Shown here piece after piece: positions 1,142-19,380 of a stretch of 24,000 bases of DNA. Position 1 is the stretch's first letter. Each line of letters starts with the position of its first letter. The DNA is taken from NCBI RefSeq assembly GCF_003326755.1, contig NZ_JPWH01000001.1, forward strand, positions 94,227 to 118,226, read 5' to 3'. A program made the translations under genes and the position numbers. The DNA is from Thalassospira profundimaris. GTDB lineage: Bacteria > Pseudomonadota > Alphaproteobacteria > Rhodospirillales > Thalassospiraceae. Below the pieces are notes generated by a model. That model saw only the letters and a program-made list of their open reading frames with translations, was not told the origin of the DNA and did no database searches.

Positions 1142-1563
1142 CAGTCGTCCTCTTTGTCGTAATCATCCGAATCGCTCTCGGATGACAGGTCCTGTGCCAC
1201 ATGCGGGTCGCGCAACAGCTCCCCGATATGATCGGACATATCAAAGCTGGTGTCTTCGACAAATCGCAATGCCGGGACATATTTCATATGCACGCTATTG
1301 GCAACATGACTTCGCAAAATACCCTTCTGGCGTTTCAGCGCCTCTAGGGTCGGTTTGGCATCACCACCGCCTAACGGGGTGACGGCCACCATTGCATTGC
1401 GCATGTCGGGACTCAGGTCAACCTTGGTCACGGTAATCGGACGACGCGACAATTCCGGGTCGTAAATATCACCGCGCTCAAGCGCATAGGACAGCGCCTG
1501 GCGGATTTCCTCCGCCACGCGTAACTGTCGCTGACTGGGGCCTTTGGCTGATTGCTTCGACAT
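1141..1563 (-). CDS. rbfA: Ribosome-binding factor A
   Basis: 140-aa ORF beginning ...SQRQLRVAEEIRQALS..., with an acidic C-terminal tail. It lies directly downstream of infB and overlaps the truB start by 1 nt. Confidence 0.92.
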   Translation of the reverse strand: MSKQSAKGPSQRQLRVAEEIRQALSYALERGDIYDPELSRRPITVTKVDLSPDMRNAMVAVTPLGGGDAKPTLEALKRQKGILRSHVANSVHMKYVPALRFVEDTSFDMSDHIGELLRDPHVAQDLSSESDSDDYDKEDD

Positions 1564-1585
1564 ATCAGTATCAATCGCGTCTTGC

Positions 1586-4467: not shown

Positions 4468-5058
4468 TCAGGCTGCGCGAAATCCTTCAAGCCGCTCTAG
4501 TGCCCGGCTTAGGCGTTGCGCCAGACCACCTGGAGCAACAGCCGCATGTACTGCGTGATCGCGGCCAAAAGCCGCTGCAATCTCGGCAGCATCCAGAACG
4601 GAAAAAACCGCTATATCGGCAGCTTTCGCCGCGATACGCGCCTTTCCGTCCGCAGCACCGTCACGTGCCGCCAATATCAGTTCCGCGCCGTCATCTATCT
4701 GGGCGCGAACCTTCTCAAACCCGGCGACAGCCTGCCCGGCACGACGCGCCAGAGACAGCAGATCAACGCATTTTTGCGACAGCATTGCTTCAATCCTGTC
4801 TGCCAGCGCCGGGTCAATCACGACTTTTTGCCGCGCCGCCCGGGCAAAGGCATTTTTTGCACAGGCGGTATTTACCACATCCCGCGACGGGCACAACCAT
4901 AATCCCCGTCCGGGCAACCGTTCATCCAGATCGGGAACGACACTGTTATCCGGGCCGATCACAAATCTGATAAGGTCTTCTTTTAACCGGACCTCGCCGG
5001 TGACAATGCACCGGCGCTCCGGGAGCTCGCGTTCCTTGCCGCCTTTACGGTGCGACAT
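4468..5058 (-). CDS. YlxR/RnpM-like (DUF448) RNA-binding protein with a C-terminal L7Ae-like extension
   Basis: 196-aa ORF. It contains RRCIVTGEV...LIRFV...GRGLWLC, the DUF448/YlxR signature. It occupies the conserved position between nusA and infB. Confidence 0.85.
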
Positions 5059-5077
5059 GGTCCCCTCCGATCAGCGA

Positions 5078-6643
5078 TCAGGCGTCTTCGCCTTCCGCTC
5101 CGGCTTCGCCGGTTTCTTCTTCCAGGTCATCAAACCAACCCAGACGACGGCGGGCTTCCATGATCAGTTCATTGGCCTGGTCAAGGGTGATGGTTTCGGC
5201 AGAGCCGGCAAATTCAATCAGCTCGTCGCTGGCAAGATCGGCGAAATCTTCAAGATTCTTGACGCCATTTTCGCCAAGCTGAACCGCAACCGCAAGCGAG
5301 ATTCCCGGGAATTCGACCAGATCATCCTGAACGCCAAGTTCGTCGCGGCGGCCCTGAAGGCGCTCGGCTTCCTCGGCAAGATAGCTCCGCGCACGACCGC
5401 GCAGTTCTTCGGCAAGTTCTTCCTCGAAACCTTCGATTTCCGCCAGTTCGGCCAGCGGCACATAACCGACTTCCTCGATCGAGGTAAAGCCTTCAGCCAC
5501 GAGGAGATGGGCAATCACCTCATCCACGTCAAGGGCCTTGATGAACATTTCAGCGCGCTTGCGGGCTTCTTCCTGGCGACGTTCGCTTTCGTCTTCCTCG
5601 GTCAGGATATCAATATCCCACCCGGTCAGCTGGGATGCCAGACGCACATTCTGACCACGACGGCCAATAGCGAGGCTCAACTGATCGTCGGGCACAACCA
5701 CTTCGATGCGGTTGGCGTCTTCATCAATCACAACCTTGGTGACTTCGGCCGGAGCCAGCGCATTCACCACAAAGGTTGCCGGGTCTTCCGACCACTGGAT
5801 GATATCGATTTTTTCGCCCTGCAATTCGCCAACAACCGCCTGGACGCGCGACCCGCGCATACCAACGCAAGCCCCGACCGGATCAATCGAGCTGTCCGAG
5901 GACTGAACCGAAATCTTGGCGCGCGACCCGGGGTCACGGGCAACCGATTTGATGGTGATAATATTGTCGTAAATTTCCGGCACTTCCTGGGCAAACAGTT
6001 TTGCCATGAAAGTCGGATGGGTTCGCGACAGGAAAATCTGCGGGCCGCGCTGTTCACGACGCACATCCAGGATCAGGGCACGCACCCGGTCCCCCTGGCG
6101 CATGGTTTCACGCGGGATCAGTTCTTCACGGCGCAAAATGGCTTCGGCCCGGCCCAGATCGACCAGAACATTGCCAAATTCGACACGTTTGACGGCACCA
6201 TTGATGACTTCGCCAATACGGTCCTGATATTCGTTGAACTGGCGTTCACGTTCGGCATCACGCACCTTTTGCACAATCACCTGTTTGGCGGTTTGTGCAG
6301 CGATACGGCCAAAGTCAATCGGCGGCAGCGGATCGATCAGATATTCGCCAAGCTGGATGTTTTCGTCACGAATACGCGCCTGTTCCAGCGACATCTGGGT
6401 GAAATCGTTTTCGATGTCATCGGTGACTTCGATAAAACGTGCCAGGCGAATTTCGCCGGTTTTGCGGTCGATATGCGCACGAATGTCATGTTCATGGCCA
6501 TAACGCGAACGGCCGGCCTTTTGAATGGCCTGCTCCATCGCCCCCAGAACCTCGTCCCGATCAATGCCTTTTTCGCGGGCGACAGCATCAGCGACCTGCA
6601 AAAGCTCCGGCCGCGGCATTCCCGAAGTTGCTTCCATATCCAA
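5078..6643 (-). CDS. nusA: Transcription termination/antitermination factor NusA
   Basis: 521-aa ORF with an S1-like region, KH regions (IGRRGQNVRLASQLTGWDIDI) and an acidic C-terminal repeat domain. It lies in the rimP-nusA-infB operon context. Confidence 0.96.
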   Translation of the reverse strand: MDMEATSGMPRPELLQVADAVAREKGIDRDEVLGAMEQAIQKAGRSRYGHEHDIRAHIDRKTGEIRLARFIEVTDDIENDFTQMSLEQARIRDENIQLGEYLIDPLPPIDFGRIAAQTAKQVIVQKVRDAERERQFNEYQDRIGEVINGAVKRVEFGNVLVDLGRAEAILRREELIPRETMRQGDRVRALILDVRREQRGPQIFLSRTHPTFMAKLFAQEVPEIYDNIITIKSVARDPGSRAKISVQSSDSSIDPVGACVGMRGSRVQAVVGELQGEKIDIIQWSEDPATFVVNALAPAEVTKVVIDEDANRIEVVVPDDQLSLAIGRRGQNVRLASQLTGWDIDILTEEDESERRQEEARKRAEMFIKALDVDEVIAHLLVAEGFTSIEEVGYVPLAELAEIEGFEEELAEELRGRARSYLAEEAERLQGRRDELGVQDDLVEFPGISLAVAVQLGENGVKNLEDFADLASDELIEFAGSAETITLDQANELIMEARRRLGWFDDLEEETGEAGAEGEDA

Positions 6644-6646
6644 CCT

Positions 6647-7234
6647 CTATTCTGCGTTGTCGTCAGACCGGCGCGGGCCGGTGACATGCGCGATCAATTC
6701 ATCTGTCAGCACGAGTTTCGCCTTTGCGATATCGGCCAACGGCAACAATTCGCGTTCGCCGTCCACTATTATGGCGACCGCATCATCTTCGAGTCCATCC
6801 AGCTTTCCGCTGAAACGGCGGCGACCGGCAACAGCCACCACCAGTTCGACCTTGGCGTCAAAACCGCGCCAAACATCAAAATCCTTGCGCCGGGTCAGGG
6901 GCCGGTCAATTCCCGGCGAACTGACTTCAAGATTGTAAGCACCGGAAATCGGGTCATCGACATCCAGCAATGCCGACACCGTGCGGCTGATTTCAGCGCA
7001 ATCCTCGACATTGATGGTGCCTTTTCCTTCGGGGCGATCCGCCATAATTTGCAGGATCTGGCTGTCCTTGCCCATCATGGACACACGTACCAGTTCAAAC
7101 CCCAGTGCCTCTATCGACGGTGCAATAATATCCGCGATCCGCGACAAAAGCGGGTCTTTCAACTGCTGTCCGATCAGTTCAGCCATATAGAATGCCATAC
7201 CCCAAAATGCACAAAAGAGCGGGCCGGGGCCCAC
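6647..7234 (-). CDS. rimP: Ribosome maturation factor RimP
   Basis: The ORF contains ...IAPSIEALGFELVRV... and LEVSSPGIDRPL, both typical of RimP, and lies immediately upstream of nusA. The true start is probably internal, at the ATG ending at 7198 or 7186, because the first 12-16 codons look non-native. Confidence 0.9.
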   Translation of the reverse strand: MGPGPLFCAFWGMAFYMAELIGQQLKDPLLSRIADIIAPSIEALGFELVRVSMMGKDSQILQIMADRPEGKGTINVEDCAEISRTVSALLDVDDPISGAYNLEVSSPGIDRPLTRRKDFDVWRGFDAKVELVVAVAGRRRFSGKLDGLEDDAVAIIVDGERELLPLADIAKAKLVLTDELIAHVTGPRRSDDNAE

Positions 7235-7350
7235 TCTTTGTTACGTTTTACAAAAAGCTTGCGCGCTGTATAACGCCATTTTCCACAGAAATCAAGTCAC
7301 GATCCTGTCTGTAACGGGCTTTCAACCAAGGGATAACCTGCCCTTGCGCG

Positions 7351-7992
7351 CTAGGCGGCCAGTCGTTGATCCTCAAGCAGAAGACCGTGAAAAAATGCAA
7401 ACGCATCATGGGCCCCCTGCATGAATTCCGCTTCTTCGGCTTCATCCAGCTCAAGTTCGTTTAATTGCGCAACAAATTCGCGCCAGTGCCTGCCACGGCC
7501 ATCGGCATGGCCGCGCAAATGACGGGCCCCAAATGTGTCATCCAGGCCAATATTGCCTGCCGCCTTTAACAAAAAGGCCGCCCCGAGGCTCGACCCTTCA
7601 CAGACATAAAGCCAGCCCAACCGGCCCGGCCCTTTTTGCGGGGCTGCCATGTGTGCCGCTGACGGCGTGGTATCTTTTGGCCGGGCAACATCAAGATCGG
7701 CCAAATCCGCACAAACATCGTCAAACCGGCTGCGCGATGACAGGCCGGGGATCAGATCATTCAAATCCGGCGCCGCATAAAGCGGCTTCATCACCCGGTG
7801 AAAGCAATATTGCATTTTGAGAAAGCGGGCATAATTGACCCGGCTGTCAAACGGCTTCATCGCCATGACCATATCGTCAATTTGCTGATGATCATCGCGG
7901 GTTGCGGCTTTTACCCGTTCGATCCGGGTCATGGCTTGCGCGCTTGCCCCTTGTGAAGACTGGTTCACATTTGCAGACTGATTGGCATTCAT
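7351..7992 (-). CDS. Heme oxygenase (biliverdin-producing, HemO/BphO-like)
   Basis: 213-aa ORF. The N-terminal helix RIERVKAATRDDHQQID carries a candidate proximal His. The distal-helix motif GWLYVCEGSSLGAAFL resembles the bacterial heme-oxygenase 'YVLEGSxLGG' motif. It is the last gene of the heme cluster. The first ~21 codons are low-complexity, so Met22 is an alternative start. Confidence 0.8.
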   Translation of the reverse strand: MNANQSANVNQSSQGASAQAMTRIERVKAATRDDHQQIDDMVMAMKPFDSRVNYARFLKMQYCFHRVMKPLYAAPDLNDLIPGLSSRSRFDDVCADLADLDVARPKDTTPSAAHMAAPQKGPGRLGWLYVCEGSSLGAAFLLKAAGNIGLDDTFGARHLRGHADGRGRHWREFVAQLNELELDEAEEAEFMQGAHDAFAFFHGLLLEDQRLAA

Positions 7993-8119
7993 TGTGGCTG
8001 GCCCCCTTCATCTCGTCCTGAAAATGGCAGGTCTGCACATTGTGTGCATGTCCCTTTGAATCTGAAACGAACCAGCCCTGCCCATATCTGACATTCGCAC
8101 AAAATAAATCGGCATGGCG

Positions 8120-9517
8120 TTATTCCTCACGAAAGGCGCGGGCGAACTGGTCGGCCAGCGGTTTTAGGAAATAACTGAGTGCAGAGCGTTCGCCCGTGGC
8201 AATAAAGGTTTCCACCGGCATACCGGGCATCAGCGGATGATCGCCAAGCCGCGCCAACTCGCCCGGTGTGATGTGCATCCGTACCGGATAGAAATTTTCA
8301 CCCGTTACCTCGTCACGCGACAAATCGGCTGCGACAAAATCCACCTGACCGGCCAGTTCCGGCGTGGTCCGGCGGTTAAAGGCGGTAAAGCGCAACATCG
8401 CCTTTTGCCCCGGATGGATCTGGTCCACATCCTGCGGGCGGGTGCGAACCTCGACCACCAGCGCATCCTGATCCGGCACAATGCCCATAATCTTTTCGCC
8501 CGCGGCAATCACCCCGCCTTCACTATGCACCTGCATTTGATAAATCGTGCCCGCATAAGGGGCGCGAATGTCGGTGCGCTGCAACTGGTCCACCAGGGCA
8601 ATTTGCCGTTGCCGTAGTTCGGCCAATTGGCGTTCCACATCCGAAAGATCGGTCAAAACTTCGGTACGCCGATCCCGTTCCAATTGCAAAATGGCCATTT
8701 CGGTTTCGGCGATTTGGGTTTGAATCGCGGCAATTTCGGATGTCAGCTCGCCATGCTGCCCCTCAAGACGGGCCTTTTCACGGCGCAAGGCCGCCACACG
8801 GGTCACGGGCACCAATTGCTTGGCAAACAGCATTTCCAGCCCGGAAAGCTCGTCCGCAATATGGCGGCCTTGTTCAATATTGGCCGTTTTCTGTGCTTTA
8901 AGGCCGCCAATCCGTTCTTCCAGTTGCAAGCGTTTTTGCTGCAATTGCTGTTTTTCGCCATTCAGGCTGTTTTTGCGGGCCTCAAACAGGCGCGTTTGCG
9001 CATGGATCAAATCGGCAATATCGGGCTGATCGCGCCGGGATGCCAAAACAGCGGGCACGACCGGCACATCCTGTTCATCACGTTCCGCCAACAGGCGCAT
9101 ATGGCGCGCCGTCAACGCATCAATCTGGCTTTCGACAATGCCAAGGCTGGCCCTGGCCCGTGTATCATCCAGCCGCACCAGCATATCCCCGGCCTGCACA
9201 TGATCACCATTGCGGACATATATCTGTCCAACAATGCCGCCATCCGGATGCTGGACAACCTTGGCATTGCTTTCCACGACAATCTTGCCGTTTGCCACCA
9301 CCGCGCCGGACAGATCCGCCAGCATCAGCCATGCCATAAACAGGGCAAATAACGCCAAAATTGATCCGGCACCAAAGAGCATATGCCGCCGCAGCGAATA
9401 TAGGGCCAGGCTTGGTTTATCCCCGTATGGCCGCGCCAGACCCGGCATGCCGGCAACGGGCTGCGTCCCCGCAACTGCCCCGGCGGAAGCGATCATGCGT
9501 TTAAACGGATGAATCAT
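8120..9517 (-). CDS. Type I secretion membrane fusion protein, HlyD family (HasE/PrtE-like)
   Basis: 465-aa ORF with a single N-terminal transmembrane segment, a long coiled-coil region (QQLQQKRLQLEERIGGLKAQK...) and a C-terminal HlyD beta-barrel region. Its start overlaps the ABC gene stop by 4 nt (9514-9517), which suggests translational coupling. Confidence 0.92.
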   Translation of the reverse strand: MIHPFKRMIASAGAVAGTQPVAGMPGLARPYGDKPSLALYSLRRHMLFGAGSILALFALFMAWLMLADLSGAVVANGKIVVESNAKVVQHPDGGIVGQIYVRNGDHVQAGDMLVRLDDTRARASLGIVESQIDALTARHMRLLAERDEQDVPVVPAVLASRRDQPDIADLIHAQTRLFEARKNSLNGEKQQLQQKRLQLEERIGGLKAQKTANIEQGRHIADELSGLEMLFAKQLVPVTRVAALRREKARLEGQHGELTSEIAAIQTQIAETEMAILQLERDRRTEVLTDLSDVERQLAELRQRQIALVDQLQRTDIRAPYAGTIYQMQVHSEGGVIAAGEKIMGIVPDQDALVVEVRTRPQDVDQIHPGQKAMLRFTAFNRRTTPELAGQVDFVAADLSRDEVTGENFYPVRMHITPGELARLGDHPLMPGMPVETFIATGERSALSYFLKPLADQFARAFREE

Positions 9518-11373
9518 GCGCTTTCTCCGACCTGGCGCAGGGTTTTGCGCAAAATGTCATCGCGGCTGCCAAAGGCAACCTGCTGACCGTTCTGGATCAC
9601 GGTGGCGTAATTGACACAGGCCAGAATATGCGGCCGATGGGCAATCATCACCACGATCGCGCCGCGTTCCCGCAAGGCGACCACCGCCTTGATCAGGGCC
9701 TGTTCGCCATCGGCATCCAGGCTGGCATTGGGTTCGTCAAGCACCACCAGAAACGGATCATCAAACAGGGCCCGGGCCAGACCAATCCGCTGGCGCTGCC
9801 CGCCCGAGAGCACAATGCCGCCCGCGCCGATTTGTGTGTCATAGCCATTGGGAAAGGACTGGATCAGGTCATGCACCCCGGCCATTTTGGCTGCGGCAAT
9901 CACCTTTTGCGCATCGGGCCGGGCGGCGAGGCGGGCAATATTGCGCGCAATCGTATCCTCGAACAATTCCACGTCCTGTGGCAGATAACCCACATGCCGC
10001 CCCAGATCATCGCGCGACCAGTGCGACAGTTCCGCCCCGTCAAGGCGGATGGTCCCCTGCAAACAGTGACCAATACCGACAAGGGCACGGGCGAGCGTTG
10101 ATTTTCCTGACCCGCTGGGGCCAATCACGCCCAGGCCATCTCCGGCCTTAAGCTCCAGCCTTGTCACCTTCAATAAAACACGCCCCGTCCCGCTGCCGGT
10201 TCTGATACCGGTTTTACCAGCCGGTCGGGCCGACCGCACCGATGGCGCATGCACAGCCAGAGTTTGTACGGTCAAACTTTCGCACGGGGCGGGCAGGGAC
10301 AGGCGGGGTTGATCCCCCCCGGCGGAAAAGGCGGTTGTGTCCCTGAGTATTTTACCAATCCTGCGATAGGCCTGCCGGGCAGAAACAAATCCGCGCCAAT
10401 TGCCAATCGCCTGTTCCACCGGCGACAGGGCGCGTGCCGTCAGGATCGAGGCTGCCACCATCGCCCCGGGCGAGACTTCCTGCAAAATCGCCAGATACGC
10501 CCCCAGCGCCAGCACCCCCGACTGCATGGCAAGGCGAATGACCTTTATATAGGCGGTAAAGGTCGAGGTGACGTCGCCAGCGGCGGTGTTGGTTTGCAAA
10601 TAGCGGTCATTGACCATTGCCCAGCGGCCCAGAAACGCCGGGACCATCCCCATAGCGCGCAACACCTCGGCATTGCGGCGCCCGGCTTCCAGCAACAGGC
10701 TGCGCCGGGCGGATTGATGATTCAGCCGTTTGACATGACGGCGGGAGAGGATTTCGCTGATCAGGGTCAGGCCGATCAACACCGCCCCACCGGCCAGGGC
10801 CAGCACACCCAGCCAGGGATGCAATAAAAACACAATCCCCATAAAAAGCGGCATCCAGGGCAGGTCGCAAATTGCCACCGGCCCGGCACTGCCGACAAAC
10901 TGGCGGATCTGGTCGAGATCATGCACCGGCCGTGCCTCGGAGCCCGGATGATCCAGCGGATTGCTCAGGGCATGTCGCAAAACATCCGGCCCAGTCTCTT
11001 CATCCACACGCCAGCCGATCCGCACCAGCATCCGGGCACGCAAGGCATCGGCCGTGCCCAAAAACAGATACAGCACCAAAACCAGAATGGTCAGCGCCAA
11101 AAGAGTGGGCATGCTTTGGCTGGCCAGCACCCGGTCATAGACCTGAAGCATGAAAAGCGGGCCGGTCAGCATCAGAATATTGGAAACGCCACTGAGCGCG
11201 GCAACACAATAAAAGGCGCGCCGCAGCGACGCCATGACCCGCGCCAGAGATGACCCGGACGACCCGGACGAACCGGCAGCCCCGGACAAACCTGATGCGC
11301 CGGATGCCCCGACAGATGGGGCAGCGGAATAGGAGGAGGGGGAATAGGCAGCGGTGCTGGCACGCCAAAGCAT
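9514..11373 (-). CDS. Type I secretion ABC transporter, permease/ATPase, PrtD/HasD/AprD class (no C39 peptidase domain)
   Basis: 619-aa ORF. The transmembrane domain begins ...NILMLTGPLFMLQVYDRVL, typical of the PrtD family. ATPase motifs are Walker A GPSGSGKST, signature LSGGQRQRIGLARAL and Walker B FLVVLDEPNASLD. The first 46 codons are a Ser/Gly/Ala low-complexity tract, so an alternative start exists at Met47 (ATG ending at 11235). Confidence 0.93.
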   Translation of the reverse strand: MLWRASTAAYSPSSYSAAPSVGASGASGLSGAAGSSGSSGSSLARVMASLRRAFYCVAALSGVSNILMLTGPLFMLQVYDRVLASQSMPTLLALTILVLVLYLFLGTADALRARMLVRIGWRVDEETGPDVLRHALSNPLDHPGSEARPVHDLDQIRQFVGSAGPVAICDLPWMPLFMGIVFLLHPWLGVLALAGGAVLIGLTLISEILSRRHVKRLNHQSARRSLLLEAGRRNAEVLRAMGMVPAFLGRWAMVNDRYLQTNTAAGDVTSTFTAYIKVIRLAMQSGVLALGAYLAILQEVSPGAMVAASILTARALSPVEQAIGNWRGFVSARQAYRRIGKILRDTTAFSAGGDQPRLSLPAPCESLTVQTLAVHAPSVRSARPAGKTGIRTGSGTGRVLLKVTRLELKAGDGLGVIGPSGSGKSTLARALVGIGHCLQGTIRLDGAELSHWSRDDLGRHVGYLPQDVELFEDTIARNIARLAARPDAQKVIAAAKMAGVHDLIQSFPNGYDTQIGAGGIVLSGGQRQRIGLARALFDDPFLVVLDEPNASLDADGEQALIKAVVALRERGAIVVMIAHRPHILACVNYATVIQNGQQVAFGSRDDILRKTLRQVGESA

Positions 11374-11413
11374 GACTATTGGTGTTCCCGTGATTTGCCG
11401 GTAAGGTAAGGGT

Positions 11414-11445
11414 GGGTGTCGCCCATTTTGCCGTGCGCGACACCC
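11414..11445 (-). other. RNA hairpin (9-bp stem) in the hemophore-exporter intergenic region
   Basis: gggtgtcgc (11414-11422) is the exact reverse complement of gcgacaccc (11437-11445). The loop is 14 nt. Confidence 0.5.
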
Positions 11446-11459
11446 GAGCAGACCATACG

Positions 11460-11499
11460 CCCGTTCCGTGATGAGCCGTCGCGGAACGGGTTTTATTTT
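11460..11499 (-). terminator. Hairpin 13 nt downstream of the hemophore-like gene stop codon; possible attenuator or 3'-end stabiliser
   Basis: cccgttccg (11460-11468) pairs with cggaacggg (11482-11490). The T-tract ttttatttt (11491-11499) follows the stem on the plus strand only. On the coding (minus) strand the hairpin is preceded by an A-tract and has no trailing U-tract, so it is not a canonical intrinsic terminator for this operon. Confidence 0.45.
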
Positions 11500-11502
11500 G
11501 CC

Positions 11503-12231
11503 TTAGACAAAATCATTCTGGTCAATGGTTGCAAAATCAACGCCCGCCAGGGTCACGGTACCATTGGCATGGGTGATGACGGTGTGGCTGGAATCACCGC
11601 TGATGGTGACATCATTGTAATCCAGCCCGATCTGGTCGCTGCCATTTTCAAAATCGGTGATCGTGTCATCGCCAAAGCTGGCACTGGCATCGAATTCAAA
11701 AACGTCTGCACCGCCATTGCCGGTCAAAACGTCATCACCCGACCAGCCTTCAATCACATCAGCCCCGGCACTGCCGTTAATGGCAACACCCTGGGATGCA
11801 AAAATGTTGTCCAGGCTGTCGGTCGAACCGCCGCGCAAGTCAGCCAACACATCATTGGTGTCTGAATTTCCAAGATTGAGCCCGGAAATATCAACCGAAG
11901 AATCAGTGTATTCAGCAAGGCCCGTTGAACTGTCCACACTAAGCGTTTCGCCAAATGATACGGAATCGAGATTCCCAGAAACGGTGTGATTCATGAAGTT
12001 GTAACTGAATTCGCCGGTACCTGTTTCAGCAATAAAACCACCCGTATAGCTGCTGGCACTATCCTGATCATCAAGGGTGAATTGCTCACCTGTAAACGGC
12101 GTAGCGCCCCCGCGAAACTGGCAATAATTGCCAGAACCGGCAGAAAAGTTGGTATTAAAGTCATTCAGAGCGGCCTGCAGATCAACACCATTACCCGAAG
12201 AATCTGCCGTCAGATCAATTTGAATAGCCAT
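11503..12231 (-). CDS. Secreted HasA-like hemophore domain fused to RTX calcium-binding repeats and a T1SS C-terminal secretion domain
   Basis: 242-aa ORF with an AGGAG Shine-Dalgarno 8 nt upstream and no N-terminal signal peptide. By-eye alignment to Serratia HasA: [26 protein letters not shown]...[11 protein letters not shown] versus [29 protein letters not shown]...[10 protein letters not shown]. Residues 153-179 form three RTX nonapeptides: [18 protein letters not shown] and GNGGADVFE. The C-terminus ([21 protein letters not shown]...DQNDFV) resembles RTX-type T1SS target domains. The gene occupies the hasA position between the receptor and the exporter. Confidence 0.75.
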   Translation of the reverse strand: [242 protein letters not shown]

Positions 12232-12271
12232 TACTAACTCCTGTGATATGTGCTTCCCATCATCGGGAAGT

Positions 12272-12296
12272 AATAATGATTATGATTATCATTATT
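12272..12296. promoter_or_regulatory. Two overlapping Fur boxes upstream of the hemophore-like gene
   Basis: aataatgattatgattatc (12272-12290) matches the Fur consensus GATAATGATAATCATTATC at 16/19 positions. gattatgattatcattatt (12278-12296) also matches at 16/19. The two sites are offset by 6 bp and lie 41-65 bp upstream of the ATG at 12231. Confidence 0.8.
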
Positions 12297-12354
12297 TTGG
12301 AGTCAACAGAAAATATCGTTTTATTTCAAATACTTAATTAAAAAAGCACTAAGC

Positions 12355-12380
12355 AGTCGGCGACATATCTGTCGCCGACT
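12355..12380 (-). terminator. Perfect 11-bp hairpin downstream of the receptor gene
   Basis: agtcggcgaca (12355-12365) and tgtcgccgact (12370-12380) are exact reverse complements with a 4-nt loop. The hairpin starts 26 nt after the receptor stop codon. On the minus strand a U-run (from aaaaa at 12341-12345) begins 9 nt after the stem, so the geometry is not canonical for an intrinsic terminator. Confidence 0.55.
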
Positions 12381-12405
12381 TGATGGATACCCAATCTGGA
12401 AACCT

Positions 12406-15141
12406 TCAGAAATTTCCGCTTAAACTCACTGTGATGGTCCGACCTGGAGCCGGAACATAGCCACCTGTTGCGTAAGCCTCATCTGTCAAATTGTTCACGG
12501 AAAATCCCACACTCACCGCTTTGTCGACTTCATAGCTGCCGTAAAGATCATACGTCCGATAACGGTAGAAAATTCCGTTATCGACAGTGGTTGAGGATTC
12601 CGAAATATTACGCGACGGATAAACAAAGGTAGCGCGAGCCCCCAACACCAGATCTTCATCAAACAGGCGAACACCACCATCAACCGTGAATTTGCGTTTG
12701 GGCAAGGTGTAGACTGTCGAAATGCCCTGAATATTTCCGTAGCCCTGCGTATAAACTTGGGTCCCTGCCGGAAAATTCAAAGGAAAAATGACCGGATTGT
12801 AATCGCCAACCATATCTGTATCTGCCTGGGAGAAAGTCCCGCCGATGTAAAAAGTCCGGGCATCGTAAGAAGCTTCAATTTCGGTACCAGTAATATCAAC
12901 CGGATCATACAGATTTACAAAAGCTTCCGCTTGCTCTGAAACACAAAATCCGAAATTGCACCCTGGCGTAGGCTGGTAAACCTGCCCCAAAACCACATAA
13001 TTATCGATCCGCGTATGATATCGGGCAATTCTGGCGCGAAATCCGTCCTGCTTAAACAAAACATTGTCATACTTGAAATTGATACCAACTTCACGCGTGA
13101 CAGATTCTTCAGCTTTAAGATTGTTGTTTGGAAGAAATGCAATTGGCACGCCAGCAACATGTGAGCCTTTAATCATACTTTCCATGATTGAAGGCGGACG
13201 CATGTTTTCCCGATAACTTCCATAAAACTGGATACCGTCGATCGGTGTTACAGCCAGCCGGGCAGAGGGAGAAACCTTTTGACCATTCATATCAATGTCA
13301 ACCGGCGTACCACCCGTGTCACAGTTTTGATCTGCTACCGGTGTAAAAAAGCCGGTTTTACACCAATAAGACGTACCCCTTAGCTGATAACGATCAAACC
13401 GAAGCCCAGCCGTCAGCTCGAAGATACCATTATAGTCAAATGTCGCATTTCCAAACGACCCATAAACATCACGGCGACCACTTGGTGTTGAACCCTCGAG
13501 TTCATAAGCAGCCCCATTCGCCTGATTTCCTATAGACTCGGAAGACGTTTCCGCTTCATCGCGAAATGCTTCAACACCATAATCGAATGTAACATTGCTG
13601 TTCTCAAGTCCCGGATTATCCGGATAGACCCGGCTGGTATTTTCTGCATCAAACCCATAAGTATCAACACGATACAGTGTTTGATACGCCTTCGTATTGC
13701 TTCTCGGCGGACGATATTGGTTATTTTGGGTCCGCGTCCACCAGACGCTGCTTTTAAGATCAACAATTTCGGAATCAGGATTCCAGTGATGTTTCGCTGT
13801 TACAGTATGCGTCTCGACATCATTGAAATCATTATAGATATTGTTTGCGTCTGTCGTTTTGCCAAAGCTGCTGGTAAAACCAACATATCCAAGATTTAAA
13901 TCCTGTTCCTCGTTGAAATGAATATTGGCCTTTACCAACCCGGAAGTCTGACGTTGATAAGTATAAGCCTCATGCCCATTATCGGCTGATACGGTTGTTG
14001 GGGTCCCGCCACTATCAAAGGTGGTATAAAGGGCAGGATTATTTGTGCCTCCCTTATAATCACCAACCACTTTCCGACTTACGGCTGCCGCCATGTCAAA
14101 TTTTGGGGAAAATCGCATCCCGGCGGAAATATCACCGGCAAAATTATACTCGTTTGTCCCGCGACGGATATCATATTTGCCCCCCCATTTTTCGTCGGCA
14201 TCAAGAATATCGTCGGTATTCAAGGTACGCATGGTAACGATACCGCCAGAGGTTCCGGCACCGCCAACCCCTGACAAATCGGTTTTTTCCACAACAACAT
14301 CTGCCAATAAGGCCGTATCAACATACGCCGAGTTGGAAATGCCGTGACCAGACTGGTTGTAATTCTGTCGTGCACCATCAATATTCATGTTGACCCGGCC
14401 TTGATCCTGCTGTCCTCGCACATTAATCGACAGCCCGGGAACCTGTTGATTTCCATCAACCTTTACACCAGCCAGGGGTTCAAAAATATCTCCTGCCGTT
14501 CGGCCTGGAACTTTACGCATTTGTTCTCGCGTAATGACACTTGTTGACCCTGGTGTTTCATAAACCCAGTCAGGATTTCCCATATATCCCGGTTCATTCA
14601 TTGTTCGTGCCGAAATAACCACCGGCGCAGTCATGACGGCAGAAGATGACTGATCCATCTGGTCAGTCTGATGCGCCACAATCGACACCGTATGTGAATC
14701 CAGCACCTGCCATGTCAGGCCGCTACCACCTAATAAACGATCCAGCGCCTGGCGCGCCGTCATGTCACCGGCAAAGGCAGCCGTCAGGCGATTGGTCGGC
14801 AGGCTGCCATCAACCACCACATCAATGCCGGTGATTTTTGAATATTCCACCAGCGCCAGAGCGAGCTTTTGGGCCGGAATATCAAAACGGTACGATTGAT
14901 CCAGGGTACCACTTTGTGCCAGTTCATCCCTCGCAGGACGGGCATCTGCCCCCACATCGGTCCCCGCCAGTGCCCCCTGCGGGATAAATGCCAGCAAACA
15001 TCCGCAAAGCGCGGTCGCAGCAAGCGTTTGCGCCAAATCGCTGCGTCTTCGTCCCAATGTCATGTCCCCTGACACCAACGTCCGGCAGATCCCCACGGAT
15101 AGTCCATTTATGCGTCTCCTAAATATGCAAATGCTTCGCAT
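12406..15141 (-). CDS. TonB-dependent heme/hemophore receptor with an N-terminal signalling (STN) domain, HasR-like transducer
   Basis: 911-aa ORF. The STN-type extension spans about aa 84-150 (FDIPAQKLALALVEYSKITGIDVVV...ARQALDRLLGGSGLTW). A plug domain and a beta-barrel follow, ending in a terminal aromatic residue (...SLSGNF). A heme-receptor FRAP/NPNL-like pair with an intervening His is present: YRENMRPPSIMESMIKGSHVAGVPIAFLPNNNLKAEES (aa 643-680). A more plausible start with a signal peptide is Met27 (ATG ending at 15063; MTLGRRRSDLAQTLAATALCGCLLAFIPQGALA). Confidence 0.9.
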   Translation of the reverse strand: MRSICIFRRRINGLSVGICRTLVSGDMTLGRRRSDLAQTLAATALCGCLLAFIPQGALAGTDVGADARPARDELAQSGTLDQSYRFDIPAQKLALALVEYSKITGIDVVVDGSLPTNRLTAAFAGDMTARQALDRLLGGSGLTWQVLDSHTVSIVAHQTDQMDQSSSAVMTAPVVISARTMNEPGYMGNPDWVYETPGSTSVITREQMRKVPGRTAGDIFEPLAGVKVDGNQQVPGLSINVRGQQDQGRVNMNIDGARQNYNQSGHGISNSAYVDTALLADVVVEKTDLSGVGGAGTSGGIVTMRTLNTDDILDADEKWGGKYDIRRGTNEYNFAGDISAGMRFSPKFDMAAAVSRKVVGDYKGGTNNPALYTTFDSGGTPTTVSADNGHEAYTYQRQTSGLVKANIHFNEEQDLNLGYVGFTSSFGKTTDANNIYNDFNDVETHTVTAKHHWNPDSEIVDLKSSVWWTRTQNNQYRPPRSNTKAYQTLYRVDTYGFDAENTSRVYPDNPGLENSNVTFDYGVEAFRDEAETSSESIGNQANGAAYELEGSTPSGRRDVYGSFGNATFDYNGIFELTAGLRFDRYQLRGTSYWCKTGFFTPVADQNCDTGGTPVDIDMNGQKVSPSARLAVTPIDGIQFYGSYRENMRPPSIMESMIKGSHVAGVPIAFLPNNNLKAEESVTREVGINFKYDNVLFKQDGFRARIARYHTRIDNYVVLGQVYQPTPGCNFGFCVSEQAEAFVNLYDPVDITGTEIEASYDARTFYIGGTFSQADTDMVGDYNPVIFPLNFPAGTQVYTQGYGNIQGISTVYTLPKRKFTVDGGVRLFDEDLVLGARATFVYPSRNISESSTTVDNGIFYRYRTYDLYGSYEVDKAVSVGFSVNNLTDEAYATGGYVPAPGRTITVSLSGNF

Positions 15142-15207
15142 TATCTTTGTCTATCCATTATGACGAACTGAAACGTCAGATATCCGAAAGGAGGGGAAAC
15201 ATTTTTT

Positions 15208-15226
15208 GCAAATAATTTTTATTATC
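15208..15226. promoter_or_regulatory. Candidate weaker Fur box in the receptor upstream region
   Basis: The reverse complement gataataaaaattatttgc matches the 19-bp Fur consensus at 13/19 positions. It sits in the AT-rich part of the 229-bp gap between the anti-sigma and receptor genes. Confidence 0.4.
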
Positions 15227-15370
15227 AAAACAGAAAGGCAAAAAGGAGGACAAGGAACAGTTCTGTCGAAGGAGCAGGAGCAAGCCAGCAAGACGGGCAA
15301 TGCCAAAAACGGATGAAGAAAGGATCGTAAAAACCTGCTTATTGGGCCCAAAGACCCCAGCCACAGCGCA

Positions 15371-16318
15371 TCATGCGGCACGTAAAATGGTCAGATAGCG
15401 GCCGATCTGATCAACCTCGACATTCAGCGCCTTGCCCATCAACGGTAAAATATCGGCTGTACGGTCAAGATTAACCACCAGCGTCACAGGGCGCTTTTTA
15501 AGCTGTTCGCCCAGCACGATGATTTTCCCCGGTTGCCAGCGTTGTAAAACAGTTGCCACATGGGCCAGCGGATCTCCGACAAAAACCAGCTTCCCCTGCC
15601 GCCAGGCCAGCCGAACAGCCAGATCCACCGGACGTGGCATCCCCATATCGCCCGGTGCAAAAGACATGGCCTGGCCCGGCAAAATGCTGTGATGACCGGC
15701 ATTTAGGGTCACATCCAGCGACCCGTTCGCGGCGATCACGTCCCCACCCGCATCATAATGGGAAATGTCAAACCGGGCTGCTTCACGCGGCCGGGTGACA
15801 AGACCCGCCGCCTGAACAAAGAAGCCCGGCTGACGACCATCATGTTCAATAAAAACCTCGCCCTCATGAAGGGCAAGGCCGGTCTGCCCAAACTGGTTTT
15901 GCACCAGCGACAGCGATGTCTGACTGGCCAGTTCGGCCTGAATACCCGGCATGACGGTTATGTTGCGCCTCTCCCCCCTGGAAGCGGCAAAATCGGCAAA
16001 GGGATGATGGGGAATGATCCTGCCATACCAGCCTGCGGCCCCAACCAGACCAACCGCCAGCCCCGCCCCCAAAAAGGCCCTTCGGCCAAGGGTCCGTGCT
16101 GGTTCCGACATATCCAGGCTGGAGGTGCCAGCCCAAAGACGTTCGATGTCAAGAAAAGCCTGGCGATGGGTTTCATCGGCTTCAATCCAGCGGGCAAATG
16201 CCTGCCGGTCCTGATCCGTTTCCGCCCCGTCCAGCAGCAGGGCAAACCAGTAAATTGCCTGCTCGGAGACATCATCTGCCGGTGGATTTTCAAAGATCGC
16301 GTTGCTTCGTTCCATCAT
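15371..16318 (-). CDS. FecR-family transmembrane anti-sigma factor / sigma regulator (HasS-like)
   Basis: The N-terminal anti-sigma region reads AIYWFALLLDG...DRQAFARWIEADETHRQAF. A single transmembrane segment (AFLGAGLAVGLVGAAGWYG) is followed by a periplasmic FecR domain. The track ORF starts at a TTG at 16342. I place the start at the tandem ATGs at 16318/16315 (MMERSN...). Confidence 0.88.
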   Translation of the reverse strand: MMERSNAIFENPPADDVSEQAIYWFALLLDGAETDQDRQAFARWIEADETHRQAFLDIERLWAGTSSLDMSEPARTLGRRAFLGAGLAVGLVGAAGWYGRIIPHHPFADFAASRGERRNITVMPGIQAELASQTSLSLVQNQFGQTGLALHEGEVFIEHDGRQPGFFVQAAGLVTRPREAARFDISHYDAGGDVIAANGSLDVTLNAGHHSILPGQAMSFAPGDMGMPRPVDLAVRLAWRQGKLVFVGDPLAHVATVLQRWQPGKIIVLGEQLKKRPVTLVVNLDRTADILPLMGKALNVEVDQIGRYLTILRAA

Positions 16319-16406
16319 GCGTCTGTCCCAACTGCACAACAAACCCGCACATAAAGCAGGGCTTTTTCTTATGACGAAGCAGCCACGACAATATCCGAGG
16401 GGAATT

Positions 16407-16916
16407 TCAGTTTTTTTCGTCGATTTTGGTTTGATCGCGCAGCAGTGTTAAGGCACGCACCATCCGGCTAAAGGCCGTTTGTGGCGGAATACCAAGTTTC
16501 TCGCCAATTTCGGCATAGGTTTTGCCTTCAAGACGGGCCAGAACAAAAACCTCGCGGGTGGATGCTGGCAATTTGTTAATTGCACTCTGCAATCGGCGTA
16601 ATTCCTGCCGGGACCAAACGATCTGGTCCGGCAAAGGGCTGTCACTGGCGACATATTCGAGGCTTTTTTCCGCATCCGGCACGAATTTCAAAATCCGTTC
16701 GCGGCGAAAATGGTCAACAACCAGATTTTGCGCCGTGCGATACAAATAGGATTGCGCATATTTCACGTCGGGCAGGGACGGCGTTGCCACAACCCGCAAA
16801 AATGTATCCTGCACGATGTCATCGGCGGTGTACCAGGCCAGTTTCCGCTTCTGAACAAAATGCCGCAATCGCGCGTGATACGTGCGAAAAAGCTGATTGA
16901 TATCCCACTGAGTCAC
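16407..16916 (-). CDS. ECF sigma-70 family sigma factor, FecI-like (HasI-like)
   Basis: 169-aa ORF with a GTG start. Region 2 reads DIVQDTFLRV...YLYRTAQNLVVDHFR. Region 4 carries the HTH motif YAEIGEKLGIPPQTAFSRMVRAL. The gene lies directly upstream of the FecR-like gene. Confidence 0.9.
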   Translation of the reverse strand: MTQWDINQLFRTYHARLRHFVQKRKLAWYTADDIVQDTFLRVVATPSLPDVKYAQSYLYRTAQNLVVDHFRRERILKFVPDAEKSLEYVASDSPLPDQIVWSRQELRRLQSAINKLPASTREVFVLARLEGKTYAEIGEKLGIPPQTAFSRMVRALTLLRDQTKIDEKN

Positions 16917-17008
16917 GAACCTGACCTTCTGAAACGCAGCCGTCCATTATCTGTCGCTTTGCGACAACGGGACGGACAATGTCATGTTGGTGTTACAGCA
17001 GGAATATC

Positions 17009-17027
17009 GCATATGAAAATCATTCTC
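17009..17027. promoter_or_regulatory. Fur box upstream of the ECF sigma gene
   Basis: gcatatgaaaatcattctc matches the Fur consensus at 14/19 positions. The core tgaaaatcattctc matches TGATAATCATTATC at 12/14. It lies about 93-111 bp upstream of the sigma start codon. Confidence 0.65.
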
Positions 17028-17134: not shown

Positions 17135-17905
17135 TCAGCTACGGGCTTTCCGGCGAAACCGCAAATAGTTGCACTTTTTACCCTGGCGCAATGCCTTTTG
17201 CTCATAGCGGGTTTTTACCCAGTCTTCCGGCGGATTGCGCCAGTCATCCGGGCTTTCGGCCAGCCATTCAAAATCCGGATGATTATGCAGGTGCTGGAGC
17301 GTCCAGGAAATATACTGCATATCATCGCTGGCCACCCGAAACTCGCCGCCATCCTTGATCAAGCGTGCCAGCAACGCCAGATTTTTCGGACCGACAAAGC
17401 GCCGTTCGGCATGGCGCTTTTTCGGCCACGGATCGGGGAACAGCAAAAACACCCGGGCAAAGCAGGCATCCTGCAACTTATAGAGCAGCGGGCGGGAATC
17501 ATCGGGCACGATGCGCACATTTTCCAAATTCCGCTCGCTGATATGGCGGACCATGCTGCTGACCCCATCCATATAGGGTTCACAGCCGATAATACCGATA
17601 TCCGGGTTGGCTTCGGCCTGCCCGGCCAAATGTTCACCGCCACCAAACCCGATTTCCAGCCACACTTCCCGGCGATCGGGCGCAAAATAGCTGCGCGGAT
17701 CAATTCCGGCCTGGTCGGGATAATCGATGGTCAGTTTGGGCAACAGTTCATCCATCAGAACTTTGCGCGACGCCTTGGGCGCACGGCTGCCACGGCGGCC
17801 ATAAAAATTGGGGCGGTCTGGGGTCGGAATGGGTCTGTTGCTACGCATGGTTTTTCTGGCAATTTTAAAGGCGAAACGGGCGGGTTTAAAAACCCCCCGC
17901 CTCAT
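17135..17905 (-). CDS. trmB: tRNA (guanine46-N7)-methyltransferase TrmB
   Basis: The ORF contains LEIGFGGGEH (SAM-binding motif) and LLFPDPWPKKRHAERRF, the hallmark TrmB motif. The start may be internal, at Met20 (ATG ending at 17848). Confidence 0.92.
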   Translation of the reverse strand: MRRGVFKPARFAFKIARKTMRSNRPIPTPDRPNFYGRRGSRAPKASRKVLMDELLPKLTIDYPDQAGIDPRSYFAPDRREVWLEIGFGGGEHLAGQAEANPDIGIIGCEPYMDGVSSMVRHISERNLENVRIVPDDSRPLLYKLQDACFARVFLLFPDPWPKKRHAERRFVGPKNLALLARLIKDGGEFRVASDDMQYISWTLQHLHNHPDFEWLAESPDDWRNPPEDWVKTRYEQKALRQGKKCNYLRFRRKARS

Positions 17906-17962
17906 AACATGTCTGGCGATTTTGGCAAATCACCAATCACCTATCGATGGTCACTGGCACCA

Positions 17963-19138
17963 TCAGGCACCAAATGCCGATTTAAGATCACCCACCAGGT
18001 CGGTTTTCTCCCACGAGAAGAAACCGCCATCACGCGGCTGGCGGCCAAAATGACCATAAGCCGAGGTCGGCGTATAGATCGGCGCGCAAAGGTTCAGATG
18101 TTCGCGAATGCCGCGCGGGCTCAGATCCATCAATTCGCGCAGGACCTTGCCCAGCCTGATTTCGTCAACTTCACCTGTTTGATGGGTGTTGACATACAGC
18201 GCCAGCGGCTTGGAAACACCAATGGCATAAGCCACCTGAATGGTGCATTTACCAGCCAGACCCGCAGCAACCACGTTTTTCGCGAGGTAACGCGCGGCAT
18301 AAGCAGCCGAACGGTCCACCTTCGTCGGGTCCTTGCCCGAGAATGCGCCGCCGCCATGCGGTGCCGCACCGCCATAGGTATCGACAATGATTTTACGACC
18401 GGTCAGGCCCGCATCACCATCCGGTCCGCCAATCACGAAACGGCCCGTCGGGTTGATGTAAATTTCGTCCTGGGAGGGCAGCCAGCCGTCCGGCAGGGCG
18501 GCTTCGATATAAGGCAGTACGGCTGCACGAACCTCGTCCTGGCTGACACCATCATTATGCTGGGTCGAAACCACAACCGAGGTTGCACCAACCGGTTTGC
18601 CGTCAATATAGCGCAACGTGACCTGGCTTTTGGCATCCGGGCCAAAAATGGCCGATGCGCCAGAATGGCGATCTTCTGCCATGCGACGCAGGATCCGGTG
18701 CGAAAACTGGATCGGAGCGGGCATCAATTCGTCGGTTTCATCGCAGGCATAGCCAAACATGATACCCTGGTCGCCCGCGCCAAGGTCCTTGTTGTCCTTG
18801 GAATCAACGCCCTGGGCAATATCGACAGACTGTTCATGCACATGGCAGGAAATATCAGCCGTTTTCCAGCTAAAACCTTCCTGTTCATATCCAATGGCGC
18901 GAATGGCTTCGCGCGCGGCTTCGATCATGGTTTCATCATTGGCAACGCTTGCCGGACCACGAACTTCACCCGCCAGGACCACACGGTTGGTCGTCGCCAG
19001 GGTTTCAACAGCCACGCGGGCATCCGGGTCAGCGGCCAAAAAGGCATCAACAATCGAGTCGGAAATACGATCGCAAACCTTGTCCGGATGACCCTCAGAC
19101 ACGGATTCGCTCGTGAACAGATATTCTTTATGAGACAT
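17963..19138 (-). CDS. metK: S-adenosylmethionine synthetase
   Basis: From the ATG ending at 19138 the sequence reads [27 protein letters not shown]..., and it contains [12 protein letters not shown] and DTYGG. The 27 upstream codons of the track ORF (19139-19219) look like translated leader sequence and are excluded. Confidence 0.96.
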
Positions 19139-19380
19139 ATAAACCTTCTCCGGTGAAAAGGGAGTTTCCAAAAAACTGGACCGGAGGGCCGCGATACGAA
19201 CGTATCGTTCAGCGCCCACTTAGCCTTTTTTTGCGTGGTGGCAAGCGGTCCAAATCCGTCCACGTCATCGGGTTGTCATATCCCAAATGGAAACATGACC
19301 CAAGCATTTTAAGACTGATGACGGAAAATAGTTATGAATTTGCCCCTGTCAGGTGACAAATGAAACAATCTGGCCTGGCA

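Follow-up and report, generated by a model that had tools for sequence, protein, structure and literature searches.

HasA hemophores are the textbook exception among the substrates of type I secretion systems, in that they have no RTX (repeats in toxin) domain, fold fast and need SecB. In Serratia marcescens the hemophore is encoded in the locus hasI-hasS-hasR-hasA-hasD-hasE-hasB, and the anti-sigma gene is also under the control of the sigma factor. The absence of an RTX domain from classical HasA is on record (PMC8277102), which also applies to its SecB need: it folds early and requires SecB to stay unfolded (PMC8277102; PMC3034196); the signalling circuit of HasR, HasS and HasI has been described too (PMC12670364). 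Here we analyse a stretch of 24 kb from Thalassospira profundimaris (the window; all coordinates are positions within it) that carries seven open reading frames (ORFs) at 7351-16916, all on the minus strand, with short gaps or overlaps between them. They encode, in this order, an extracytoplasmic function (ECF) sigma factor, a FecR-like protein, a TonB-dependent transducer, a HasA-like protein, an ATP-binding cassette (ABC) exporter, an adaptor and a heme oxygenase, and the first six genes have the same order as in Serratia. We are fairly confident that this locus is a chromosomal, genus-conserved Has-type system for heme acquisition and sensing with an RTX-fused hemophore. All functional statements made here about the locus are predictions from sequences and structural models.

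An earlier note on this DNA had already described seven co-directional genes in the Has order, with a heme oxygenase where Serratia has hasB, and all seven minus-strand ORFs and this gene order were confirmed. The identities that it gave to the components agree with our searches: each protein was matched by a hidden Markov model (HMM) or by the sequence of a PDB entry, the HasA-like protein also by its fold, and all HMMs that the note had named scored above their curated cut-offs, except for the FecR core (22.8 versus 24 bits). Its guess of an alphaproteobacterial backbone was right as well: the 242 amino acid HasA-like protein is 100% identical to a database record from Thalassospira profundimaris (Rhodospirillales, Alphaproteobacteria).

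The predicted hemophore and its partners

The HasA-like hemophore gene (11503-12231, minus strand) encodes 242 amino acids, of which residues 1-148 (11788-12231, minus strand) form the HasA-fold heme-binding domain. The Pfam profile HasA (PF06438) matched the protein with 35.3 bits (cut-off 26.3), with residues 31-152 aligned to positions 38-167 of the 206 profile positions. There was no match to a HasA family in NCBIfam; Pfam and PDB comparisons were used. Profile-profile alignment (hhalign) to Serratia and Pseudomonas HasA gave a probability of 97.8% (E 1.3e-12) and paired Tyr77 (codon 12001-12003) with Tyr75 and His82 (codon 11986-11988) with His83 of classical HasA; the Serratia HasA query used was checked and is identical to PDB 1b2v at 188/188 positions. 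An AlphaFold model, built from an alignment of 23 family members, had a mean predicted local distance difference test score (pLDDT) of 93 and a predicted template modelling score (pTM) of 0.88. When this model was compared with the PDB by Foldseek, the top 44 matches were all HasA (best E 6.6e-10, target-normalised template modelling (TM) scores 0.58-0.69), from Pseudomonas, Yersinia and Serratia and including HasA in complex with HasR. Tyr77 and His82 occur without exception in the 23 family members, and nearly all of the 95 HasA-like representatives described below have them as well. By sequence and model the 242 amino acid protein is HasA-like, as the earlier note had proposed; the lack of HasA similarity that the note had named as part of its refutation did not turn up. 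The protein is predicted to bind heme and to deliver it to HasR.

The remainder of the protein (residues 149-242; 11503-11787, minus strand) is an RTX and secretion half. RTX repeats were recognised by PF00353 (27.5 bits, cut-off 23): residues 153-179 (11695-11775) are three consecutive perfect GGxGxD nonapeptides, followed by a beta-roll cap and the end ...DQNDFV, which is conserved across the 23 family members. The C-terminal ~95 residues were modelled as a beta-roll, which Foldseek matched to the RTX domain of a Pseudomonas lipase, MIS38 (E 1e-4). A C-terminal tail of acidic plus hydrophobic residues is typical of the protease and lipase substrates of PrtD-type exporters. The classical architecture (~185-220 amino acids, no RTX repeats, ...LAA end) is not that of this protein, with its 242 amino acids, RTX repeats and ...DFV; the earlier reading as a small secreted hemophore holds for the HasA likeness, and the RTX fusion had been overlooked. 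In our reading of sequence and model, the hemophore combines a HasA-fold domain with an RTX module that has a protease/lipase-type C-terminus, both in one fusion protein. In the open-access literature we found no description of an RTX-fused hemophore or of heme uptake in Thalassospira; marine hemophores were also searched for.

The gene of the hasR-like TonB-dependent transducer (12406-15141, minus strand) encodes 911 amino acids as listed, with a probable true start at 15063. Its protein has the Pfam domains STN (14677-14823, minus strand; 31.8 bits, cut-off 28.4), Plug and TonB_dep_Rec, and it scored 434 bits with the TonB-hemin model TIGR01785 (cut-off 317) compared with 65 bits with the siderophore model TIGR01783. 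The best solved relative is Serratia HasR (E 1e-80, 275 bits, residues 76-892 including the signalling domain); ShuA reached 63 bits. Both heme ligands of HasR have a counterpart: His189 corresponds to His266 (codon 14344-14346) within the conserved SGHG, and His603, which lies between the FRAP and NPNL boxes, corresponds to His661 (codon 13159-13161) with a shift of one residue in the alignment (MRPP-x10-His661...PNNNL here, WRPP...His603...PNPFL in HasR). The distinction between a heme and a siderophore receptor, on which the earlier note had let its reading depend, is supported by these scores and residues in favour of the heme/HasR type.

The neighbouring signalling pair adjoins this STN-domain transducer. 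The hasI-like ECF sigma factor (16407-16916, minus strand; 169 amino acids) is FecI-like, with the Pfam domains Sigma70_r2, Sigma70_r4_2 and Sigma70_ECF and a TIGR02937 score of 88 bits (cut-off 43), and its GTG start and ribosome-binding site are conserved among relatives. The locus had previously been extended to 17027 as the start of this gene, but an in-frame TAA upstream of GTG 16916 closes the frame, and 17027 is the edge of a conserved Fur box. The hasS-like FecR-family anti-sigma factor (15371-16342, minus strand) has 323 amino acids if read from a TTG, with ATG 16318 as the likelier start; it matched DUF4880 (51 bits) and, over residues 28-318, the FecR model NF007296, and both FecR core and FecR_C stayed just below their gathering scores. 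The HMM libraries used include no model specific for HasI or HasS.

Next to the hemophore gene, the hasD-like ABC exporter of the PrtD class (9514-11373, minus strand; 619 amino acids) has the Pfam domains ABC_tran and ABC_membrane, no C39/CLD domain, and a TIGR01842 match of 677 bits (cut-off 510) over residues 48-610. Residues 1-47 (11233-11373), outside this match, are of low complexity and rich in Ser, Gly and Ala (...GASGASGLSGAAGSSGSSGSS...), and relatives differ here; translation may in fact begin at a later codon, or these residues may be a lineage-specific tail. The ATG of the hasE-like adaptor gene, a membrane fusion protein of the HlyD family (8120-9517, minus strand; 465 amino acids), overlaps the hasD stop, and the adaptor matched Pfam HlyD_3 and TIGR01843 (394 bits, cut-off 209). 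The HemO-type heme oxygenase (7351-7992, minus strand; 213 amino acids) scored 86.9 bits with PF01126 (cut-off 23) and aligned end to end with Neisseria HemO (1j77, E 7e-45) and pa-HO (1sk7, E 2e-40); NCBIfam gave no match to a HemO family. Its His35 (codon 7888-7890) aligns with the proximal histidine, and EGSSLGAAFL with EGSNLGAAFL of the distal helix.

Conservation in Thalassospira and relatives in public data

The same seven genes are found between trmB/metK and rimP/nusA in 18/18 retrieved Thalassospira species genomes, and this shared chromosomal site indicates that the ancestor of the genus already had the locus and that it is no recently gained island. Housekeeping genes surround it, with truB-rbfA-infB-ylxR-nusA-rimP at one end and trmB-metK-HTH-lnt-corC-ybeY-phoH at the other. 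GC content dips to 0.45 at 12-14 kb, and recent horizontal transfer was considered as its cause and rejected: hasR and hasA have a lower GC content than their neighbours in all 18 relatives, so that the dip is a matter of composition and not of recent import. Three long plus-strand ORFs at 1544-4330 (928 amino acids), 5000-7273 (757 amino acids) and 17198-19156 (652 amino acids) are antisense to infB, nusA/rimP and metK/trmB, respectively; they look like shadow ORFs and not genes, given their low complexity and their position opposite well-supported genes.

Conservation is uneven within the locus. The window and its closest relative (L003) share 85-95% of their nucleotides in the flanks and in the genes of sigma factor, exporter (hasD), adaptor (hasE) and oxygenase, and 92% in the RTX half of hasA; in hasR and the half of hasA that encodes the HasA fold, the identity drops to 47-67%. 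In a comparison of 171 pairs of genomes, the HasA-fold half diverges closely in step with hasR (r = 0.90, Mantel p = 0.0005) and almost without correlation to nusA (r = 0.13), while divergence of the RTX half follows that of hasD (r = 0.75); for the whole stretch of hasR and HasA-fold half (11788-15370), the correlation with nusA is r = 0.13-0.35. The pair of loci L001 and L005 illustrates this: sigma factor, exporter and RTX half are 94-96% identical, and receptor and heme-binding domain only 55%. The pair L003 and L005 has the reverse pattern. These patterns suggest that hasR and the HasA-fold half form one exchangeable cassette that is uncoupled from the species phylogeny, with its joint at the HasA/RTX boundary. 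The coupling of receptor to HasA domain and of RTX half to exporter is the pattern expected of partners that interact physically. The periplasmic half of the FecR-like protein, for which the nucleotide identity plot had hinted at membership in the divergent cassette, was rejected as a part of it: at the protein level this half is 81% identical to that of L003, like the rest of the gene.

A word-indexed protein search with the profile of the N-terminal domain returned only the Thalassospira family, and an exhaustive search of cluster representatives was needed to find more distant relatives. With the HasA-fold domain alone as profile, this search identified 95 cluster representatives at E <= 1e-3. 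Ninety-four of these were re-aligned to the profile, and 61/94 carry at least one RTX motif, about twice the size of the classical class. The members of the classical class have 184-218 amino acids, no RTX motif and a ...LAA end; those of the RTX class mostly have 240-530 amino acids (a few have more than 1000), 1-27 RTX motifs and, in most cases, tails similar to D-F-x-F-V. The Tyr/His dyad is retained in nearly all members of both classes. RTX-class proteins are usually annotated as "calcium-binding protein", for example those of Shinella and of Ensifer/Ciceribacter. Two marine gammaproteobacterial proteins, from Bacterioplanoides (L023) and from a metagenome-assembled genome (MAG) of Pseudomonadales (L025), have the motifs YTLFSxPxHTLYGQLDSL and GVVHKVLYGLM, followed by RTX repeats, and with these near-classical motifs they bridge, in sequence, the classical and the RTX class.

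The gene neighbourhoods of the RTX class support a role in heme acquisition. A TonB-dependent receptor gene lies directly upstream of the RTX-HasA gene in Pseudovibrio, Comamonas, Bacterioplanoides and the Pseudomonadales MAG (L019, L020, L023, L025), and at another locus an STN-domain receptor gene precedes it. In Ensifer/Ciceribacter, the HasA-RTX gene follows a cluster that encodes an ABM-receptor, a binding protein, FecCD and an ATPase, a heme-type ABC importer. A metagenome contig (L083, 1739-5695) has a triad of receptor, HasA-RTX and heme oxygenase genes, with a divergent gene for a periplasmic binding protein; judged by its gene content, this triad is an independent repeat of the linkage between hemophore and oxygenase in Thalassospira. 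The search also returned giant RTX proteins that have both a HasA-like domain and the dyad: P0067 (1453 amino acids), P0080 (934), P0126 (1299), P0127 (3118) and P0094 (1301). In some of them the HasA-like domain is internal (residues 2112-2214 in P0127), and P0094 has 12 separate stretches that match part of the profile. These giants may be surface-anchored heme binders.

From these data we tentatively propose, as a possibility that we would not yet call probable, that RTX-HasA proteins are a large unrecognised class of hemophores of marine and soil Alpha-, Beta- and Gammaproteobacteria that outnumbers the classical proteins of pathogens in cluster diversity. In such a class, folding of the beta-roll by Ca2+ would replace SecB, and receptor and heme-binding half would be swapped as one cassette with its joint at the HasA/RTX boundary, giving each lineage a private scavenger with a conserved secretion module. 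If true, heme capture by hemophores would no longer be confined to a few pathogens and would include free-living bacteria of sea and soil. In these habitats the recycling of heme is regarded as important for the supply of iron, and secreted scavengers risk loss by diffusion and to cheaters. That receptor and heme-binding domain turn over together, next to an exporter module that is conserved, suggests that selection acts on the specificity between hemophore and receptor. A natural and widespread HasA-RTX fusion would also be a ready comparison for the role of RTX repeats in secretion and folding, and many "calcium-binding protein" entries beside heme receptors could be re-annotated.

Regulatory DNA, predicted mechanism and rival explanations

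The window was scanned with a 19-mer Fur consensus, with mismatches counted and the chance level taken from shuffled sequences. The best sigma-70 match of the locus (10/12 positions) lies ~45 bp upstream of hasA (12272-12306, minus strand): a -35 element TTGACT (12301-12306), a spacer of 16 bp and a -10 element CATAAT (12279-12284). Two overlapping Fur boxes at 12272-12296 with 2 mismatches each cover the -10 element, with 0 expected at <=3 mismatches, and a Fur-like box is present at this position in 16/18 relatives. The earlier note, which had described the locus as a single block, had overlooked that hasA has its own predicted Fur-controlled promoter.

Further boxes have more mismatches and are conserved. 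The Fur box upstream of the sigma gene (GAGAATGATTTTCATATGC at 17009-17027, minus strand; 5-6 mismatches) lies within ATTGAGAATGATTxTCATxTGCGATA, which is kept in all 19 Thalassospira loci with at least 15/19 agreement at every consensus position, while the x positions vary. Upstream of the hasR promoter, a Fur-like box (GATAATAAAAATTATTTGC at 15208-15226, minus strand; 5 mismatches) is conserved in the 19 loci as TG..AATAA.AATTATT..CAAAAAA. The 5' leader of hasR has a conserved dyad or Fur-like box (GATAATGCGAAGCATTTGC at 15127-15145, minus strand; 5 mismatches), with AATGCGAxGCATTTGCAT conserved upstream of the conserved GGAGA of the ribosome-binding site. In the closest relative, a simple CT-rich repeat (...CTCCCTCTCCCTCTCCCTCTCC...) is inserted between the fecR-like gene and hasR (~6720-7000 of L003), upstream of the conserved hasR promoter block; neither the window nor the other loci have this repeat.

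A second type of motif, TCRGATA-N14-TCGT, occurs without mismatch exactly three times in the 24 kb (0.25 expected), each time between genes and on the coding strand. They lie upstream of the anti-sigma gene (16374-16398, minus strand; TCGGATAT-N13-TCGT, also seen at this position in many Thalassospira loci), upstream of hasR (15163-15187, minus strand; again TCGGATAT-N13-TCGT, an exact match conserved in the alignment of 19 loci) and upstream of the oxygenase gene (8067-8091, minus strand; TCAGATAT-N13-TCGT, conserved as TC.GATAT...TCGT). In the 18 Thalassospira loci the motif is again found at these three sites, and all other loci retrieved have only two copies between them. A layout of two blocks with CGT in the downstream block is typical of ECF promoters. 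The distribution of both types of sites suggests that Fur controls the sigma gene and hasA, and that the sigma factor controls the genes of anti-sigma factor, receptor and oxygenase.

Two hairpins flank hasA. The one after hasR is terminator-like (GTCGGCGAC-AGATAT-GTCGCCGAC at 12356-12379, minus strand, with a T-run at 12340-12346), and relatives have a hairpin of different sequence at the same place. The one between hasA and hasD (11459-11491) has a stem conserved across species. Read on the hasA strand it lacks a U-tail; with the A-run that flanks it on one side, it is terminator-like on the plus strand. It may act as an attenuator, with partial termination before hasD and hasE, or stabilise the hasA transcript.

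These data suggest the following mechanism. Low iron would lift the repression by Fur at the promoters of the sigma gene, hasR and hasA, as the Fur boxes indicate. The hasA gene would be transcribed from its own strong sigma-70 promoter, and read-through past the tail-less hairpin would supply hasD and hasE. The 242 amino acid protein would be exported unfolded by the PrtD-class ABC exporter, the HlyD adaptor and a TolC-like channel encoded elsewhere, with the C-terminal RTX/...DFV signal recognised by the exporter as it is for serralysin-type proteases and lipases. Outside the cell, the ~10 mM Ca2+ of seawater would fold the beta-roll and template the folding of the HasA domain, which probably removes the dependence of classical HasA on SecB. 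Heme would be bound by Tyr77, activated by His82, in the manner of Yersinia HasA and with no ligand of the His32 type. The loaded hemophore would then dock on the HasR-like receptor, and heme would pass to His266 and His661 and enter the periplasm with energy from TonB. Through its STN domain the receptor would signal to the FecR-like anti-sigma factor, and the freed ECF sigma factor would drive the putative TCRGATA-N14-TCGT promoters of the anti-sigma, hasR and oxygenase genes. An unlinked ABC importer would take heme to the cytoplasm, where the HemO-type oxygenase would convert it to biliverdin, CO and iron.

Several observations weigh against this reading. The score with Pfam HasA is modest (35 bits), and the match begins only at position 38 of the profile. 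The hairpin between Tyr and His has three residues fewer than that of classical HasA. Conservation does not extend to the His32 ligand, whose counterpart in the alignment is Gly34; position 36 near this site is Tyr here and His or Phe among family members. His32 is absent from Yersinia HasA too, so that it does not define the whole HasA family. The Shinella-type locus (L081) encodes a protein of 375 amino acids at 10001-11128 (P0052) with 9 RTX motifs and the dyad kept, with no receptor nearby, and it follows that receptor linkage is not universal in the RTX class; its surroundings are sulfate-assimilation genes (a PAPS reductase-family protein, a GTPase) and, ~4-7 kb upstream, a type I ABC exporter and an AprE-like adaptor. 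In the 24-kb window neither a TolC/HasF channel nor TonB/ExbBD nor an inner-membrane heme importer was found; the channel must be encoded elsewhere in the genome, and the earlier description of the locus as complete and in one block holds for the seven genes and not for channel, energy transducer and importer.

The 5' end of hasR is a further difficulty. In relatives, hasR starts with an ATG after the conserved GGAGA; in the window this ATG (~15105) opens an out-of-frame ORF of 15 codons (MDYPWGSAGRWCQGT*), and the TGA of this ORF overlaps the in-frame ATG 15063 (ATGA), from which a normal signal peptide (MTLGRRRSD...) would be made. Compared with relatives, the 5' end of hasR in the window is frameshifted, so that the receptor would depend on an internal start. 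Either the frameshift is real and goes with coupled re-initiation, or the assembly is in error here. ATG 15141 was also considered as start and is unlikely, as it lies inside the conserved leader dyad, upstream of the conserved GGAGA. For the regulatory part, recognition of the boxes by the Thalassospira Fur is a prediction, and the TCRGATA-N14-TCGT motif is assigned to the sigma factor of the locus by position and conservation.

One alternative is that the locus is mainly a cell-surface heme sensor and that another receptor carries most of the flux, as argued for the Has system of Pseudomonas aeruginosa, where Has is the primary sensor and Phu the main importer (PMC12670364). The full signalling set (STN domain, anti-sigma factor, sigma factor and three putative sigma-dependent promoters) fits this, as does the lack of a periplasmic or inner-membrane importer gene in the window. 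The receptor has nevertheless retained both heme-ligand histidines, the plug and the TonB-box region, and the dedicated oxygenase under the same putative type of promoter suggests real heme flux. We regard a mainly sensory function as rather unlikely; sensing and uptake are in any case compatible with each other, and a system for both remains the preferred reading.

Two further alternatives question the hemophore itself. The 242 amino acid protein could be a calcium-binding exoprotein of the usual RTX type, such as an adhesin or surface-associated protein, with an N-terminal domain that merely resembles HasA, in which case the receptor would import free heme directly. Such a protein would agree with the database label 'calcium-binding protein', with the modest Pfam score and missing His32 and with the Shinella homologue that is not linked to a receptor, and is yet very unlikely: evidence from fold, profile and motifs all points to HasA with an invariant Tyr/His dyad, the gene occupies the hasA slot in 18/18 genomes and co-varies with the receptor (r = 0.90), and L023 and L025 carry near-classical HasA motifs ahead of their RTX repeats. 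Or the ligand could be another marine tetrapyrrole or metalloporphyrin, for example a breakdown product of chlorophyll, instead of iron-heme. HasA structures have been solved with phthalocyanine, salophen and tetraphenylporphyrins (from the titles of PDB entries), and a variable second ligand could shift the specificity. We consider this the least credible reading of all, given that the receptor passes the model for heme receptors and retains the bis-His site, that the locus also encodes a canonical heme oxygenase, apparently under shared regulation, and that the Fur boxes imply a response to iron starvation. An iron-heme hemophore with an RTX half is the reading that we carry into the comparison with described systems.

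Comparison with known systems

The locus differs from a plain Has locus in three respects: the hemophore has RTX repeats and no His32, the promoters are wired differently, and an oxygenase replaces hasB. Shared with the Serratia system are the ECF sigma factor, the anti-sigma factor, the STN receptor, a hemophore with Tyr/His dyad, a PrtD-class exporter without C39/CLD domain, the HlyD adaptor and the Fur boxes. In both systems the outer-membrane channel is encoded outside the operon (tolC in Serratia), and the anti-sigma gene, which in Serratia is under its own sigma factor, apparently is so in Thalassospira too, with a putative ECF promoter upstream. Serratia HasA has 188 amino acids, no RTX repeats and an ...ELLAA end, in contrast to the 242 amino acids, three RTX repeats and ...DFV of the Thalassospira protein, which lacks the His32 ligand; there is no TonB paralogue hasB, and the oxygenase gene has its slot. 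While hasA of Serratia is a simple member of the hasR operon, hasA of Thalassospira has its own predicted Fur-controlled sigma-70 promoter behind a hairpin. Unlike Serratia, the host is a marine alphaproteobacterium.

The Has system of Pseudomonas aeruginosa has the same signalling scheme (PMC12670364), and in both organisms the importer is encoded elsewhere. Structures of its hemophore HasAp are the best structural matches to the Thalassospira hemophore, and pa-HO is a close homologue of the oxygenase (E 2e-40). HasAp is without RTX repeats, unlike the Thalassospira hemophore. The P. aeruginosa has locus ends in the channel gene hasF, with hemO elsewhere in that genome. The Thalassospira oxygenase gene lies inside the Has locus, behind the same promoter motif as hasR, whereas hemO of P. 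aeruginosa is unlinked. Yersinia pestis HasA (PDB 4jet, 4jer), likewise of the HasA fold, belongs to the top Foldseek matches (target-normalised TM score 0.65). In its published structure a second ligand of the His32 type is absent and heme is held by the Tyr/His dyad alone, and the protein differs from the Thalassospira hemophore by the absence of RTX repeats and by a classical ...LAA-type end.

The remaining relatives share one part of the locus each. The RTX substrates of PrtDEF and LipBCD systems (serralysins, Pseudomonas MIS38 and Serratia lipases) have the same GGxGxD beta-roll, the acidic plus hydrophobic tail and an exporter of the PrtD subfamily; their passenger is an enzyme, while the passenger in Thalassospira is a HasA fold. 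Neisseria HemO is the most similar oxygenase (E 7e-45), and its gene is linked to the gene of the TonB-dependent heme receptor hmbR. Unlike the Thalassospira locus, hemO-hmbR comes without a hemophore, type I secretion genes or an ECF signalling pair.

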